DNA of 64,000 nt from Eledone cirrhosa (GCA_964016885.1 OZ024743.1:305474001-305538000), one strand, 5' to 3'; counted from the stretch's first letter, positions 31,701-64,000 are shown. The notes: generated by a model not told the origin, from the letters alone. Numbers and translations are program-made.

Positions 31701-32471
31701 ATCTTCTGACAACGTTTCACATAGATAAACTGATATATGAGAAAATAGTTTATAAATGGGATTCATGTGAAATTGGACAAATGAAGGGTAGAAGAATAGC
31801 AGCATTTCAGGTTTCCCCATCTATATTAATTTGGGAGTAGGAAAAGAATCAGGGTCCCGACGGCTGAGTATATGGTATATATGTATGTATTTTTTACAAC
31901 TCCATATTCAGTAAAACATTCTTATTGCATTCGTATTCAAATGTGTAAAGGCATATGGCTTAATAGTTAGAGTGATTGTGTGTAAAGGCTGGTTTCGGTA
32001 ATTTCGTATGGAAATCGAATGCTTAGGACTTTTGTCTAACATTTGAATGCTTCTTAACGAGGCGAGGTACTTATATTGAAAGCCACGTTACCTGTATTTG
32101 TTTGTTCAAAGTAAATATTACGTTATAGTTTCTTTATATATTTGAGAAGATATCAAAGAAACTATATAAATGTCTCCGCATATAATATATCATTGTATCA
32201 ATTGCACTTATGCGTTCTCGCGTAATAGCTGCATTAAGTCTTGAACTAGACATGATAAAAACTTAGACTGAGAAAAAGTGTAAAATATGTATTAGGAAAC
32301 GTCCATTAGAGAAAATTAAAATGCGTGATCGAATGAAAGGAAATGACAAATTCTAAACGAACTGTTGATGACGAGAAGATAAAATAAAATAAAAATATCA
32401 GATGAAATGTAAAAATGTAAATAAAGCTTCGACGAAGATACGGACCGAACGGAACTAAAAATGTAAGTAAG

Positions 32472-32516
32472 CAATGGCTTAGGATTATACCGCCTTAAAC
32501 ACTCGGCCACCTCGTC
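32472..32516 (-). pseudogene. 5' half of a tRNA-Ser(GCT)-like gene (also 34846-34890 minus, 63428-63472 plus)
   Basis: gacgaggtggccgagtgtttaaggcg...ctaagccattg resembles the metazoan tRNA-Ser(GCT) 5' half GACGAGGTGGCCGAGTGGTTAAGGCG...CTAATCCATTG; no T arm follows. Confidence 0.7.
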
Positions 32517-32682
32517 ACGTAAAGTCTAGACAACGTTTAACAAATATAAACTGATATATGAGAAAATAGTTTATAAATGGGATTCGTGTGAAATTGGACA
32601 AATGAAGCGTACAAAAATAGCAGCATTTCAGGTTTCCCCATCTACAATAATTTGGGAGTAGGAAAAGAATCAGGATCCCGAA

Positions 32683-59239: not shown

Positions 59240-62230
59240 TGTCGGTGCAAGTGGCATCCCAGACGAGGGGTTTGCCACCGCGGAACGGGAAGATGGTCAT
59301 GCCATCTGGCCTTTTGCGTCCCCTCGATCCAGCCCCACCGGCTCGAGCTGGGAAGGGAAGCCTGCAGCGCCCAAGCCATGCTTAATGACCTCGTTGAGTG
59401 CAGCATGGCGTGGAATGCGGCCGGCACTGCGGCGACTGAAAAGTGGGTGGAGGCCGAAAGAGTGAACGGTGGAACCGCAGCGACATTGGTGTGGCTGGCA
59501 TATCCGGAGGCCGAGCGTCAGGGAAACGCCGATTCGCAGGCTATGTTTGCTGCGTGCTAGTGGAGAAGGAGGGCAGGACATGGAGCCAGGCACCCCTGTG
59601 GGGCTTGGGGGGCCGCACGTAAACAAGCAGGGCGATGCTGGTCGAGTTTGCGCGTGGGCCTGTCAGAGGCCAGGCTGCACTGGATGGCATCCCAAGTGCG
59701 TTGGGGGGACTTGACGTCAACAGGGGGAGAAGGAGGAGGCACGTCTACTGGGCTAAATTCCAGCCGGTCCCACGTCTCACAGGCGGCTTCACGTTCTCTG
59801 AATACAGAGGGTTCTGTTGTATTTTGAAGAACCCTGCTGACGAGGATGCGGCACGTGTTACCGACGAAAGAGAACGCCGGCAAAGCTAGTGAGATCGGGG
59901 ACCGGGGGCCAGGGCCACCTTACCTGACCGGTAAAGTGGCCTGTTGCCACCCTATGTCGTCAAACTTGGCGTTGCAGATCCCCTCGGCTGCTGCTCGGAT
60001 ACAAGTATCGAGGTCAGCGAGGAGAGATGTCTGGGTGTAGCACGGAGCGCTGCGGAGTGTATAGAGGAGCTTCGGCATGGTGAAGCAGTTCCTCAGCAGA
60101 AAGAGAGCTGGGTGGCCGTCAATCAAGCCCAGTCGGCTCGTGAGAGTCTGGAGCTGTTGAAGCCTGGAGCTGATGGTGGAGCGGATGGCCGGCGGGTGGA
60201 TCGGTGACCTGACGATGAGGACATCCTCTTTGTGGGTCACCTAAACCTGGCAGAAAATGGACCGTACGTCCAAGACGGAGGCTGCAAAGCTCGCAGCATC
60301 GACGCTAACGTTCACCACCTCCGACTTGGCCGAGTTGACCTGAAGGCCGATTCCCGCTAGGGCAGGAACCACCGATTGAAGGTCATGGCAGACCGTCCGT
60401 ACGGGCCCGCCCAACGTAACATCATCCAGATACCAAACGTTGAGAGGGGCCGTAATAATGCGGGCGATGTGGTCAATACCAAGGGAGAACATGAGGGGTC
60501 CTAAAGGGTCGCCCTGTTGGAACCCAGTAGCCGAGGGTATGGTCGTATAAGCAGCTAGGAACATGCTCGGAGCTCCATATGACCGGTAGGCGAGCGGGTA
60601 GGCAGAGGGGGCTCGGCTGAGGCAGGCCTCGAGCAGATTAACCCGGCGTAAAGAGTTGAAGGCATTCCTTATGTCAAGTTTGACAATGAGGTGCCTGGAG
60701 TCCCTGGATGCCGGTACCGATGGGCAGCTGCTGAAGAACTGCCTGGTTGCATGAGCAGCTCCCTCAGCCATCGGACACGCCGACACCCAGTTACACCGGA
60801 CTAAACTCCTCACCCAGTTCGTATGTGACGGACTCCCAGATCACCTTGGCAGGCAGCCTCCGGAAGACATTACCCACAGCAATGGGGCGTATGCCTCCCT
60901 CTTTCTTCCTGAGAGCGGTGAGGCTAGCCGAAAAAAACTGGCCTCGGACGTAAGAGTCGAGGGCTCCAGGGATGAGCCTATTGGTGAGCACCACAATTGC
61001 ACTCAGAAGGCGGCGCCCGGCCTCAGCGGAGAGGGGGGATGTCAACTCCTTGAGGTGGGCTGGTCGGAGACCATAAACACCTCCGCAGCTGCTAGCTGGG
61101 AAGGACCTGATGGCGGACCTGATATCTGCATCAGTAGCCACAAGGAGCAAGTGGGGGTCGGGTGGGGGTATGGGTCTGAGATCAGTGTGTGGCTCAGGAT
61201 TTTGAGCCGCAGAGCAGCCAAGACCTCCTCGGTTGATTGGAGGACAGTTTCCTCTGAAGCAACAACTCTGACTGCGGCCGAGACATCACCCATGATAATC
61301 TTTGCGTTTACCTGGTCACTCAAATGCTTGGCGCTGGCTTCAGGGGTGGAGGATAGGGAGTACCTGAGAGTGAGGTGTGTGGCGCCCCAGGGCACGCTTG
61401 GAATGGGTGCTCGACAAAATGACGAGACATTGGCCTTGACGAAGGCTGCTGTTGACCGGCCACCCCGGTCAGCGCCATACCTTTGGAGTCCAGGGCGCTC
61501 TCAATCGAGGAAGCGAAGGCATCGGCTACCTGCACCCGTGCCGCTCTCGGGATCCTGAGTGGGATCTTCCGGAACCGCCTGTGCCGAGCGATGTTGACCA
61601 GCGAGGCTCGGGCATCAGGAAAGCTCGCTGTCCCTTCTGGTGGTATGCCAGGCGGCCGTAGCTGGGAAGACGTGGGGAATAGGCAGCTCCTGCACCTCCA
61701 CGCTGCGAGGGCATTGGAAGCTCGACGTGTCAAGCTAACGCAGGTGAGGTGGTGGAAGCAGCCGCATCCCAAACAAATCCGCCCCCTCTTCTGTTTGTTA
61801 GTGGTGCCGCAAGTGCTGCAGGTCCCGATTTGGAGGGTGGGGATGGGGTGTGAGACCGGGGACTGGGGCACCGAGCGGCATCAGGGTTGGGTGGCCGGCG
61901 TTTGTGGGTGGAAGGGAAAGTGCTGGTAAGAGGGCCGCATATATATGGAGGTGCCAGAAAGCGAGAGCGAAAAGGGGCTGCATGGAGGGGGAGTCACAGG
62001 AAGGGAGAATGGTAGTAAATGAATGAGTGAATGAATGGATGCGTGAGAAAACAAGTTGTTCCCAGCGGAACGACCCAAAGTTCAGCACGCACACAAACTT
62101 AGCAGTTTGTCATAGGACCTAGTTGCTGGTGGTGAGTCACTGATGCTGGTGTTGGCTTCCTCTTGTTAATGGTAGAGTTGTTGTTGTTACTGACACTGTT
62201 GTCGTCGTTGCCTTCCTATTGTTAATGGTG
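59240..62230 (-). mobile_element. mirror of CRE copy 1
   Basis: ORFs 60241..60813 (QQGDPLGP, WYLDD), 60791..61150, 61320..61871 (PHD-like finger). Confidence 0.9.
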
Positions 62231-64000
62231 AAGATATAGAGCGAAATACAAAATCGACCAGCAGAAAATTATATAAAAAATGTTTCTAGAAATAAAAGTC
62301 AGCATTTCTGTCTGGGATATAAATATTTGTTTTACATTTTCGCAAACATCGTAACGATATTCTCAAAGGACGCGCTTACGGTATTTGAATATGAACTGAA
62401 CCGTCGTGTCATTTAATTTGAATAGTGGAGCAAAGTAAAAGGAGAATAGTGAATTTGGAGTGTCAATCCCTTGTGATTTTTTTTTTTTAATACCGGACAT
62501 AGTTTTCCAGGATTTATAGACGCATTTTTTTTTTTTTTCCTTCAAAAGGATGGAGGCGTTAATGAAAGGTCTCTATCATTTTCAGTCGTGTCCAACTTTA
62601 TTGTAGAATGTAAAGCATCTGATACACACATGATGTAAACTATAGATAGAATGGATATCGTCTTCATGCATGCATAAATATAAAAAATTAAATGTCATAA
62701 CTTATATATTTAATGAAAGTAGATGTCATAAGCAATGCAGAAAAAAAAGAAAAGAAACTACTTCAAAGGCGATGCGTGTTGAGATTTACAGGAGTCGAAC
62801 ATACGACTCCCAGTTTCCTAGTCTAGTACGATAGCCAAGGACCCACATATGTCTACTGAATTTGCGGCTCACAATTTAAATTACTATAGATAATATTTTA
62901 GACAGTACAATCTTGGAAAGTGTTTCTAATTATTTCGTATTGATTACCAAATTTTGCCCACTATTGGAGAAGTAATTTAATTTCAATTGGTCTATAACAA
63001 GTCTTATGTTTGTTAGACTCATTCATAAAATACGCATCTAATCAATTTTAGTCATTATTTACTCGATAGTTTAAAACATTTGCTAAGCATTCATACTCCC
63101 AAATTAACCACAAAGAGAGTGTGTTAAGAAACCAGGTGGACCATTACAAAGCAGAGAACTCGATACTTAGGGTAGTAGAGTGGCTGAGCTCCGGCCGTTT
63201 TCACAGCTAGATCAGAAAAGAGATCGGATCTAGCTGTCGAAACGGCTTTAGCTGCTCAGCCTTCGGGATCCTGATTCTTTTCCTACTCCCAAATTAATAT
63301 AGATGGGGAAACCTGAAATACTGCTATTCTTCTACACTTCATTTGTCCAATTTCACATGAACCCCATTTATAAACTATTTTCTCATATATCAGTTTATAT
63401 TTGTGAAACGTTGTCAAGACTTTACGTGACAAGGTGGCCGAGTGTTTAAGGCGGTATAATCCTAAGCCATTGCTTACTTACAATTTTAGTTTCGTTCGGT
63501 CCGTATCTTCGTCGAAGCTTTATTTACATTTTTACATTTCATCTGATATCTTTATTTTCTTTTATCTTCAAGTCATCAACAGTTCGTTTAGAATTTGTCA
63601 TTTTCTTTCATTCGATCACGCATTTTATTTTTCTCTAATGGACGTTTCCTCATATATATTTTCAACTTTCTCTCAGTCTAAGTTTTTATCATGTCTAGTT
63701 CAAGACTCAATGCAGCTATTACGCGAGAACGCATAAGTGCAATTGATACAATGATATATTATATGCGGAGACATTTATATAGTTTCTTTGATATCTTCTC
63801 AAATATATAAAGAAACTATAACGTAATATTTACTTTGAACAAACAAAAACAGGTAACGTGGCTTTCAATATAAGTACCTCGCCTCGTTAAGAAGCATTCA
63901 AATGTTAGACAAAAGTCCTAAGCATTCGATTTCCATACGAAATTACCGAAAGACGCCTTTACACACAATCACTCTAACTATTAAACCAGATGCCTTAACA

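Follow-up and report, generated by a model that had tools for sequence, protein, structure and literature searches.

An old inverted segmental duplication around 5S rDNA-derived sequence in Eledone cirrhosa, probably the substrate of a later inverted triplication

We analysed a 64,000-nucleotide stretch of the Eledone cirrhosa assembly (GCA_964016885.1, OZ024743.1:305474001-305538000; hereafter the window) and find in it a 51.1-kb palindrome, P2, which spans window positions 26797-77908 and thus extends past the window end at 64000. P2 is best read as an old inverted segmental duplication whose arms probably acted, at a later time, as the inverted repeats underlying an inverted triplication, a reading to which we assign a probability of about 0.6. 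For P2's own origin a fold-back template switch is likely and the most plausible class of event. A first-pass annotation had described a giant interrupted palindrome and attributed it to one event of fold-back or breakage-fusion type. Self-BLAST and MAFFT bear out the palindrome in the assembly, with a span that exceeds the window; of the explanation, the inverted duplication is supported and the fold-back part remains the most plausible. The single-event reading does not, since P2 is one of two sister palindromes in a zig-zag of inverted copies that measures at least 770 kb and was traced over 1.06 Mb.

The sister palindrome, P1, lies ~480 kb upstream and is the mirror of P2, with a left arm of type A' and a right arm of type A; the two arm types are 2.4-3.4% different where not homogenised and differ in addition by two large indels. 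Both flanks of P1 are copies of the left flank of P2. Three copies of 200-250 kb, I (+), II (-) and III (+), are found between P1 and P2 and to the left of P1: copy I is the outward run of the P1 left arm over ~250 kb, and copies II and III lie between the palindromes and meet at a 200-N scaffold gap (C4:305311657-305311856), which is the centre of the II/III fold. Copy IV (-) is the right arm of P2; it is 25 kb long and abuts unrelated DNA at a sharp junction. A genome-wide search with an arm probe (27000-29000) returned exactly four copies at 98-100%, C4:305009508(+), 305048144(-), 305501000(+) and 305549708(-), and a fifth at 92-93% at C4:321.46 Mb. An older single copy, V, located 16 Mb away and 6.6-6.9% diverged, roots the four-copy set and runs unbroken across the equivalent of the 26797 breakpoint. 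The chain linking copies II and III consists of 41 blocks of 1 kb or more, which cover 177/176 kb at 97.1%; differences of 52, 17, 13 and 8.8 kb set the two copies apart.

Self-BLAST of the window gave four collinear inverted blocks, each with E = 0 and far beyond chance, as well as a match in an alternative register of the tandem unit:

52834-55321 against 50179-47696, 98.9% identity
55329-57331 against 45455-43432, 95.7% identity
57555-61481 against 40816-36889, 96.2% identity
61483-64000 against 36829-34295, 92.1% identity
62705-64000 against 33242-31944, 93.8% identity (alternative tandem-unit register)

By MAFFT the inner arm edges are 50332 and 52773; the BLAST edge is further out only because of a 90-bp insert in the left arm (50161-50250). 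With 100 kb of downstream DNA added, the arms run on and end sharply on the outer side at 26797 / 77908, the outermost match being 26797-32671 against 77908-72036 (98.2% over 5,889 bp). The arms are thus 23.5 kb (left) and 25.1 kb (right) long, and between them lies a spacer of 2,440 bp (50333-52772), in agreement with the ~2.4 kb annotated before. Two long inverted arms, with blocks of 92-98.9% identity, around a unique spacer whose next best genomic match is 85%, are features of a palindromic segmental duplication. Its features are as follows.

1..26796, plus strand: left flank of P2, belonging to the larger amplicon; in copies I, II, III and older V, absent from IV
26797..50332, plus: left arm, type A, inner end of copy III; inverted match to 77908-52773, edges sharp at 26797 and, on the inner side, 50332
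31873..35756, minus: left-arm tandem repeat of 2.1-2.4 kb, two units (self-BLAST)
36257..39145, plus: retroelement copy 1, predicted PHD-RT non-LTR, frame broken; residues 11-884 of a 985-aa relative (tblastn with P0002, P0017, P0032; Pfam PHD)
40930..43431 (start approximate), plus: ~2.5 kb restricted to arm type A (copies III, II), including a 469-bp repeat of 39941-40408
45325..48477, plus: retroelement copy 2, nearly full length, frame broken; residues 11-962 of the 985-aa relative (tblastn)
45456..47695, plus: 2,240 bp of retroelement copy 2 missing from arm type A' (copies IV, I; alignment)
49685..50158, plus: 5S-spacer-derived element X, left arm (self-BLAST); parts match the non-transcribed spacer of 5S arrays
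50333..52772, no strand: spacer, 2,440 bp, ~1.5 decayed 5S rDNA units (MAFFT edges, genomic matches)
51048..51166, plus: diverged 5S rRNA gene copy, full length (Rfam RF00001, 101.9 bits)
51585-52063, plus: element X, spacer copy, 85% (self-BLAST)
52407..52519, no strand: perfect (TA)56 microsatellite within the spacer; distance to the right arm 253 bp (TRF period 2, 56.5 copies, 100% matches)
52773..64000 in the window and on to 77908, minus: right arm, type A', copy IV (self-match to the left arm)
52855-53329, minus: element X, right-arm copy (self-BLAST)
54570..55283, minus: only residues 725-962 of retroelement copy 2, mirrored (tblastn)
59118..61823, minus: mirror of retroelement copy 1 (tblastn, domain search)
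62558..64000, plus: first part of the right-arm tandem array; its end, at 72834, lies outside the window

The three indels that had been named to account for the unequal arms, a tandem unit, ~2.5 kb and 2,240 bp, are all real according to self-BLAST and alignment. The tandem unit has a period of 2,351 bp (31873-33245 / 34224-35611, 92.2% identical), and a difference of one unit holds for the window; over the whole arms it does not, the right arm having ~5 units (62558-72834) against two in the left. At the 2,240-bp deletion the right arm joins the equivalents of 45455 and 47696 via ~8 bp of filler, and the same deletion is present in the P1 left arm. Protein domains were sought in the ~2.5-kb type-A segment (40930-43431) and none were found, which leaves its earlier label of 'LTR/hAT' without protein-domain support. 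Judged from sequence, the arm retroelement, for which the earlier label of 'CRE' is putative, is a PHD-RT non-LTR element: its relatives have an N-terminal PHD finger and RVT_1, some also a C-terminal UCH domain, and its RT is nearest to R2 proteins among solved structures (E 3.7e-8). No host gene was detected in the arms. P2 consists of transposon- and satellite-rich DNA, to which no function is implied.

That the axis lies in 5S rDNA-derived sequence is confirmed by the Rfam hit and by matches to 5S arrays. The only other genomic match of the spacer over much of its length is found at C4:320.95 Mb (85%), and parts of it match 5S arrays at C4:92.66 Mb and on C14. The 5S copy is the one and only Rfam family hit in the window; it scores 101.9 bits as compared to 113.2 for array genes, and differs from the identical C14 array genes at 11 of 119 positions, including 53, 81 and 82, which fall in what we take to be the internal control region. 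It keeps the upstream motif and downstream T-runs, and is likely a pseudogene. ARAGORN found no tRNA in the window, and the 'Pol III gene cluster' of the first-pass annotation is an overstatement for what amounts to one 5S copy plus 5S-spacer fragments.

P1 repeats the A/A' fold around a different centre. Its left arm (u 19693-22251) corresponds to 57583-55019 of the P2 right arm at 98.05% and lacks the 2.5-kb and 2.24-kb segments; its right arm (u 22250-29844) corresponds to 45198-37609 of the P2 left arm at 97.7% and has the 2.5-kb segment. At the centre (junction at C4:305032250) ~9.8 kb is missing, the copy-IV equivalent of 55019 being joined to the copy-III equivalent of 45198 with 2 bp of microhomology (a shared GC). 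P1 contains neither a copy of the P2 spacer nor a 5S gene. In copy I flank-type sequence is joined to an A'-type arm; the change is bounded to the equivalent of 26797-27224, within 430 bp of the arm edge, without a visible switch tract.

The relative age of these events was derived from 9,697 gap-free columns in three segments of the four copies. Parsimony-informative sites are distributed as 78 (I,IV|II,III), 20 (I,II|III,IV) and 2 (I,III|II,IV), a 78:20:2 pattern which indicates that the split between A and A' is older than that between P1 and P2. Over the three segments, distances are 1.70/1.82/1.78% for I-IV and 1.09/2.18/1.32% for II-III, as compared to 1.16/2.98/2.58% for III-IV and 1.93/3.38/2.35% for I-II; in segments B and C, A and A' therefore differ by 2.35-3.38% and I-IV and II-III by only 1.3-2.2%, as expected of a repeat pair that predates the triplication. 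The 20 of 100 informative sites that pair the two arms of each palindrome are partly clustered, five in 29339-29609 and five in 38614-38751, and differences in mutation rate or alignment could contribute to them. The P2 arms are identical over about 29000-30200 (1.2 kb) and show one substitution in 48522-50329 (1.8 kb). Clustered exceptions and identical tracts together point to likely gene conversion between the arms.

These data can be arranged in a three-step history. A 25-kb inverted copy, A', would have been inserted beside the 5S-derived spacer. Much later, at about 1.1-2.2% divergence, a replication fork in A would have switched by homology into the outer edge of A', copied back through the palindrome plus about 210 kb of left flank, and switched forward again, which would yield I, II, III and IV in the order + - + -. 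The centre of P1 would have been skipped during the triplication event or deleted afterwards. The full version of this history, a germline triplication of 200-250 kb seeded by the 25-kb palindrome, with paralogue-specific variants that record the templates and a centre skipped in or lost from the new copy, is tentative and in our opinion has somewhat less than an even chance of being right. Three neighbouring copies with the middle one inverted exist only if the assembly is right. A single event predicts that the left-flank copies I, II and III are equidistant, but the distances obtained from the 6 of 20 probes that could be used (13 others had short or odd hits and 1 lies in satellite) are 1.91-2.56% for I-II, 1.21-2.65% for I-III and 0.24-2.37% for II-III. 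The classical model would also place another spacer copy in P1; the segment between the repeats is not duplicated, and an extra switch or later deletion must be assumed. Moreover, copy I should continue left past x=333 kb, but the assembly is interrupted by a gap near x=360 kb, past which the DNA is unrelated. With a second gap (C4:304780352-304780551) at the left end of copy I, and the second triplication junction falling in or beside that at C4:305311657-305311856, two joins that the model needs are unassembled.

Large palindromes in gene amplification can start from short inverted repeats or from breakage-fusion-bridge cycles. At the present locus, one chromatid could have broken close to the 5S units and fused with its sister to make a first palindrome, with repeated cycles adding folds, and the serial head-to-head and tail-to-tail folds (+ - + -) do resemble such a ladder, as the spacer-less P1 centre with its 2-bp microhomology resembles a fold-back junction. 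Yet the locus is interstitial, at 305.5 Mb in a sequence of 378.8 Mb whose end is 73 Mb away, with unrelated DNA on both sides; P2 has an asymmetric, unique spacer of 2.4 kb; the P1 arms are of different older types (A', A), which excludes the self-fold of a single chromatid as the origin of P1; and the about equal I-IV and II-III distances fit one event better than cycles. Nothing specific to the breakage-fusion part of the earlier proposal was found, and we regard it as very improbable. Slightly less credible still is that P2 is a contig-level error, for instance a graph walk that turned back via a short inverted repeat. No read was seen to cross the centre, the arms are nearly identical over their innermost 1.8 kb, and (TA)56 and the X copies close to the centre make assembly difficult; but there is not a single N within 164 kb around P2, the arms show 1-3% divergence in addition to three indels of 2.2-2.5 kb, which one sequence read twice would not, and the A/A' fold was assembled independently in P1 and, according to 78 of the 100 informative sites, has arms that parted before P1 and P2 did. 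Right-arm-specific states are furthermore reproduced by short-read contigs, such as one of 574 bp (52823-53396) with 0 differences in three runs of one sample. A single spacer between two arms should show a twofold difference in word depth, and the values are 21.7/21.6/18.3 at the spacer end and about double that, 38/43/33, in the arm next to it; all reads come from one sample, probably the assembled one, and hence do not constitute independent support.

A more serious concern, unlikely in our judgement, is that one real palindrome locus was assembled twice and that P1 and P2 are alleles wrongly adjoined at the 200-N gap. The 374-kb contig right of the gap (III, P2, IV and right flank) would then be the other parental haplotype of the right part of the 531-kb contig (part of I, P1 and II), set beside it in inverted orientation by the scaffolder, and the alleles would differ by the 9.8-kb central deletion and the length of one arm. 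The II/III fold centre is indeed the gap, and PMC9516828 lists a gap between the members of a duplicated pair among the hallmarks of false haplotype duplications. Contigs are short here (531 and 374 kb), the arm types of P1 are those of P2 in mirror-image order, and the pair with the lowest average distance is II-III, which varies from 0.24 to 2.37% along its length as alleles do. Against this, homology stops before the gap, at b 325771 / 332990, with an arm-to-centre transition in both contigs, and beyond that point 5.9 kb of the left and 1.1 kb of the right contig do not match, where alleles would stay alike. Copy IV has only 25 kb before the right flank, as compared to about 250 kb for copy I; the DNA left of copy I is not the mirror of the right flank, giving only repeat-like matches of 90-97%; the G segment has the opposite relative orientation; and the four large differences between II and III also argue against alleles. 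Since two haplotypes cannot yield three long copies, the giant I/II palindrome within one contig would remain in any case. Per-copy word depth is about 19-20, which may be haploid depth.

As for known systems, the locus resembles false heterotype (haplotype) duplications, as described in PMC9516828, in the scaffold gap between two long near-identical copies, but here the copies are inverted and three in number, with internal arm-to-centre transitions and different outer ends; read depth is the main criterion between the two. With the amplification palindromes that arise from short inverted repeats or breakage-fusion-bridge cycles (PMC4357702, PMC2444050, PMC5314454) it shares the fold-back geometry, and, as in palindromes initiated by short inverted repeats, the P2 centre contains an element, X, in both orientations together with the cruciform-prone (TA)56. 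Unlike these, P2 is germline and interstitial with diverged arms, and shows no evidence of terminal loss or selection for amplification.

Inverted duplication/triplication is an already known kind of rearrangement, and the copy number given for this locus is provisional, read depth being the measure that would confirm it. PMC11293582 describes a model that combines inverted low-copy repeats with two template switches and a chimeric repeat. Like DUP-TRP/INV-DUP structures (PMC11293582, PMC4352052 and PMC4689423) the locus has a pre-existing inverted repeat pair and, in the assembly, three neighbouring copies with the middle one inverted, and one repeat appears to join flank sequence to the variant type of the other repeat (PMC11293582). 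The patient variants are de novo, whereas this structure is part of a reference genome assembly; its repeat pair is, unlike in those cases, a 25-kb palindrome with a 2.4-kb spacer, the second inter-repeat spacer copy is missing and the second junction is in an assembly gap. As the spacer is not duplicated, we describe the P2 locus as working like this model and not as a proven member of the class.

The palindromic segmental duplications, with which mouse chr12 SD12A1 (PMC13688818) is grouped, are also among the closest known systems. P2 differs from mammalian sex-chromosome palindromes in that its arms, in which no host gene was detected, carry retroelements, a 2.1-2.4-kb tandem repeat and 5S debris instead. 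Primate X palindromes have arms that differ by less than 0.2% according to PMC8327919, and those of P2 are 1-3% diverged, so that homogenisation here is patchy. The same paper reports arm-to-arm gene conversion and deletions concentrated at palindrome centres; P2 likewise has inverted arms of tens of kb, a unique spacer and signs of gene conversion, and structural change at the centre has its counterpart in the 9.8-kb central loss in P1.

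The palindrome under study, P2, lies in and downstream of the window (G000:C4:305474001-305538000, G000 being this 3.0-Gb assembly and C4 a sequence of 378.8 Mb). The first-pass annotation had claimed a large inverted repeat, which was borne out by self-BLAST in four collinear block matches of 92.1-98.9%, the outermost also in a second register. The spacer, estimated then at ~2.4 kb, measures 2,440 bp, as MAFFT placed the inner arm edges at 50332 and 52773. When the comparison was extended by 100 kb of downstream DNA, the outer edge was found to be sharp at 26797 / 77908. Since the arms reach these positions, P2 spans 51.1 kb in all, its left arm measuring 23.5 kb and its right arm 25.1 kb. 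There is no N in the 164 kb around it.

Arm matches of P2 (window coordinates)
52834-55321 against 50179-47696, inverted block, 98.9% (self-BLAST)
55329-57331 against 45455-43432, inverted block, 95.7% (self-BLAST)
57555-61481 against 40816-36889, inverted block, 96.2% (self-BLAST)
61483-64000 against 36829-34295, inverted block, 92.1% (self-BLAST)
62705-64000 against 33242-31944, inverted block in the other tandem-unit register, 93.8% (self-BLAST)
26797-32671 against 77908-72036, outer arm match, 98.2%

Two of the three indels first proposed to separate the arms were recovered as described, namely ~2.5 kb present in the left arm only (about 40930-43431) and 2,240 bp within a retroelement (45456-47695). 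The third, a single tandem unit, is real as a repeat with a period of 2,351 bp, but the right arm holds about five units (62558-72834) against two in the left. The left arm alone also has an insert of 90 bp at 50161-50250.

The only Rfam family in the window is a full-length 5S (51048-51166, +, 101.9 bits), and ARAGORN detected no tRNA there. The genes of an array on C14 are mutually identical and score 113.2 bits each; the 5S copy departs from them at 11 of 119 positions. It retains the conserved upstream motif and downstream T-runs and, on its sequence, can be read as a decayed variant. Fragments of 5S spacer, including element X, make up the remaining spacer and the innermost arms.

Repeats at the P2 centre
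49685-50158 (+), element X, a 5S-spacer fragment
51585-52063 (+), element X
52855-53329 (-), element X
52407-52519, perfect (TA)56

The C14 array (fetched DNA L024, G000:C14:42768001-42778000) consists of head-to-head inverted pairs, with 11 genes seen (6 +, 5 -); at C4:92.66 Mb the 5S units of another array are repeated directly in tandem, with a period of ~1,380 bp.

The arms carry two copies of one non-LTR retroelement. Its relatives consist of one protein each, ~985 aa long, in which a PHD finger at the N terminus is accompanied by RVT_1, and the nearest solved structures are R2 proteins. The first-pass label 'CRE' for this element is tentative. Some PHD-RT relatives (protein P0032 and its relatives) have a C-terminal UCH domain (PF00443, ubiquitin hydrolase), an odd accessory for a non-LTR element; the copies in the window show no such domain. 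Site-specific insertion into the tandem unit was dropped as an explanation because the two copies adjoin unit positions ~1350 and ~985. Pfam was scanned with 13 frames that reach 150 aa or more and, for 26000-52900, with 60 of 87 stop-to-stop frames of 70 aa or more; the other 27 were mostly antisense over GC-rich retroelement blocks. The scanned frames matched PHD and RVT_1 only and no transposase, integrase, gag or protease; the first-pass label 'LTR/hAT' therefore finds no support among these frames, and a non-autonomous element may lie behind it. The arms also carry a tandem repeat of 2.1-2.4 kb and a highly abundant SINE-like repeat. The latter (~196 bp with a tRNA-like head, at 20940-21339, 44425-44658 and 56117-56350, without an ARAGORN tRNA call) has a short-read word depth of ~5e5, which places it among the genome's most abundant repeats. 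The palindrome itself shows no evident host function, whether the assembly is right or wrong.

A 2-kb probe from the arm matched the genome at exactly four places at 98-100%, all on C4, and at a fifth, C4:321.46 Mb, at 92-93%.

Arm-probe copies at 98-100%
C4:305009508 (+), upstream palindrome P1
C4:305048144 (-), upstream palindrome P1
C4:305501000 (+), P2
C4:305549708 (-), P2

The left arm of P1 is built like the right arm of P2, without the 2.5-kb and 2.24-kb segments, and its right arm like the left arm of P2. With the arm structures swapped, P1 thus mirrors P2. A simple fold-back origin of P1 was rejected since its arms are of different types. At its centre the right-arm position homologous to 55019 is joined directly to the left-arm position homologous to 45198, at a shared GC, so that ~9.8 kb is missing, namely the spacer together with the inner ends of the two arms; P1 has no 5S gene. 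On both sides its flanks copy the left flank of P2.

Self-comparison of 1.06 Mb by k-mer dot-plot placed both palindromes in a larger zig-zag of mirror copies, I to IV, of which II and III carry arm type A and I and IV arm type A'.

Zig-zag structure (b is the C4 position minus 304,980,000)
b about -199 to 52 kb (+), copy I
b 52 kb, centre of P1
b 52 to 326 kb (-), copy II
gap at b 331.657-331.856 kb, II/III centre, 7 kb with a 200-N gap
b 333 to 544 kb (+), copy III
between copies III and IV, P2 spacer
b 547 to 572 kb (-), copy IV, 25 kb only
from b 572 kb, unrelated right flank

Between copies II and III, 41 collinear blocks of 1 kb or more match at 97.1%; together they amount to 177 and 176 kb. 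With two other gaps, at b -199.6 kb and b 705.5 kb, the contigs to the left and right of the II/III gap come to 531 and 374 kb. Window -24798 to 31688 also has an older, single counterpart in collinear order, copy V (C4:321421248-321461139), which is 6.6-6.9% diverged and passes the position homologous to 26797 without a break. The outer end of copy IV, which adjoins a dispersed 2.2-kb repeat, is therefore a rearrangement breakpoint. As a pre-duplication state of the centre, copy V was ruled out because it ends at the homologue of 31688, before the centre.

Several other features were seen in the copies and their neighbourhood. A satellite block of ~52 kb in copy II (G000:C4:305095300-305147200) is 3.3 kb in copy III, and the two also differ by stretches of 17, 13 and 8.8 kb. 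A satellite of 48-bp period (~4 kb, fetched DNA L015-L018, window -24876 to -20830) is conserved in position in the amplicon and at the head of copy V. The left flank holds a trypsin-domain exon (PF00089, E 1.9e-9) at 3505-3891 (+), open in copies I, II, III and V with a few amino-acid changes; a serine-protease gene or fragment was therefore triplicated together with the flank. The + strand of window 1-9000 showed no second exon of this kind, and a search with the exon peptide returned no named relative. Other reverse-transcriptase frames of the left flank lie at 12995-14800 (+), 9360-10513 (-) and 18238-18606 (+); one is open over 602 aa (RVT_1, E 8e-31) and its element has a 96% copy at window 88710-90965. 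Another inverted pair, of ~22 kb (97-98.7%, G000:C4:305565000-305586700 / 305704600-305732700), lies beyond the window; it encloses a 200-N gap (C4:305685481-305685680) and has a third, direct copy at C4:304763000-304779000. Inverted duplications abound in the whole neighbourhood.

For the order of events, the four arm copies were aligned over three segments (9,697 gap-free columns). Informative sites group I with IV and II with III in 78 cases, I with II and III with IV in 20, and I with III and II with IV in two. Both large indels follow the majority pattern and, together with these counts, therefore indicate that A and A' separated first and that P1 and P2 split later. The pairwise distances are consistent with this order.

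Pairwise arm distances (segments A, B, C of the alignment)
I-IV: 1.70%, 1.82%, 1.78%
II-III: 1.09%, 2.18%, 1.32%
III-IV: 1.16%, 2.98%, 2.58%
I-II: 1.93%, 3.38%, 2.35%

The 20 minority sites are partly clustered, with five in 29339-29609 and five in 38614-38751, and the P2 arms are identical over ~1.2 kb (29000-30200) and differ by a single substitution along their innermost 1.8 kb. Such clusters and tracts we read as probable arm-to-arm gene conversion, which PMC8327919 describes in mammalian palindromes.

All reads come from one sample and none spans the centre. That P2 itself is an assembly artefact is nevertheless most improbable: its sequence is unbroken, its arms have diverged with private indels each, and the A/A' fold was assembled again in P1 with another centre. 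Moreover, a right-arm-specific contig of 574 bp (52823-53396) was recovered with 0 differences (three runs, one sample), and depth at the spacer end (21.7/21.6/18.3) is about half that of the adjoining arm (38/43/33). That P1 and P2 are haplotypes of one locus, falsely duplicated, has rather more in its favour and is still unlikely. A gap between copies, as at the II/III fold centre, is a hallmark of such errors according to PMC9516828. However, the arm-to-centre transition is present in both contigs ahead of the gap, the outer ends of copies IV and I differ, and three long copies are impossible from two haplotypes.

Our preferred reading, to which we give a probability of about 0.6, is that P2 is an inverted segmental duplication that likely arose by fold-back, likely underwent arm-to-arm gene conversion and later likely seeded an inverted triplication of 200-250 kb. 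In the first event, A' would have been inserted beside the 5S-derived spacer, likely by a fold-back followed by a return switch. The junctions of this event have sharp edges and show no long homology. The fold-back half of the first-pass proposal thus stands as the likely one, and a breakage-fusion-bridge origin is very unlikely. The X elements in both orientations and (TA)56 are, by position only, candidate promoters of this event. The ancestral order would be left flank (S), arm A, spacer, arm A' and right flank, that is, P2 itself. Following the scheme for inverted triplications at inverted low-copy repeats outlined in PMC11293582, a fork newly inside A would switch by homology into A', copy back across the palindrome and ~210 kb of S, and then switch forward again near x=330 kb. 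Copy I as S plus an A'-type arm, copy II as an A-type arm plus inverted S, unchanged copies III and IV and a I-IV distance similar to II-III are all predicted and observed. We infer that this one scheme accounts jointly for the right flank and the shortness of copy IV as well as for arm types and orientations.

Should the assembly be right, the locus is an evolutionary case of inverted-repeat-driven inverted triplication, a class of rearrangement described chiefly in human patients and in tumours. It is then also old enough to display the aftermath, in that the centre was deleted, gene conversion acted in patches, a satellite expanded and the retroelements decayed, and it shows that a palindrome seen in one window can be a single fold of a twentyfold larger structure, which affects the weighing of such finds. 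Should the assembly be wrong, the locus marks a haplotype-duplication error of ~240 kb on C4. A literature search showed no 5S-centred palindrome among the papers listed, which is not proof of absence.

Compared with the inverted-triplication model there are three misfits. P1 lacks the spacer, which calls for one more switch or for a deletion of the centre afterwards; the distances in the left flank are not equal (I-II 1.91-2.56%, I-III 1.21-2.65%, II-III 0.24-2.37%, from 6 of 20 probes that were usable); and copy I ends at a gap. The locus is therefore described as working like the model rather than filed as a proven member. Palindromic segmental duplications, inverted triplications and central deletions are already known as kinds; what this locus adds is a palindrome that likely acted as the seed of a far larger inverted triplication.
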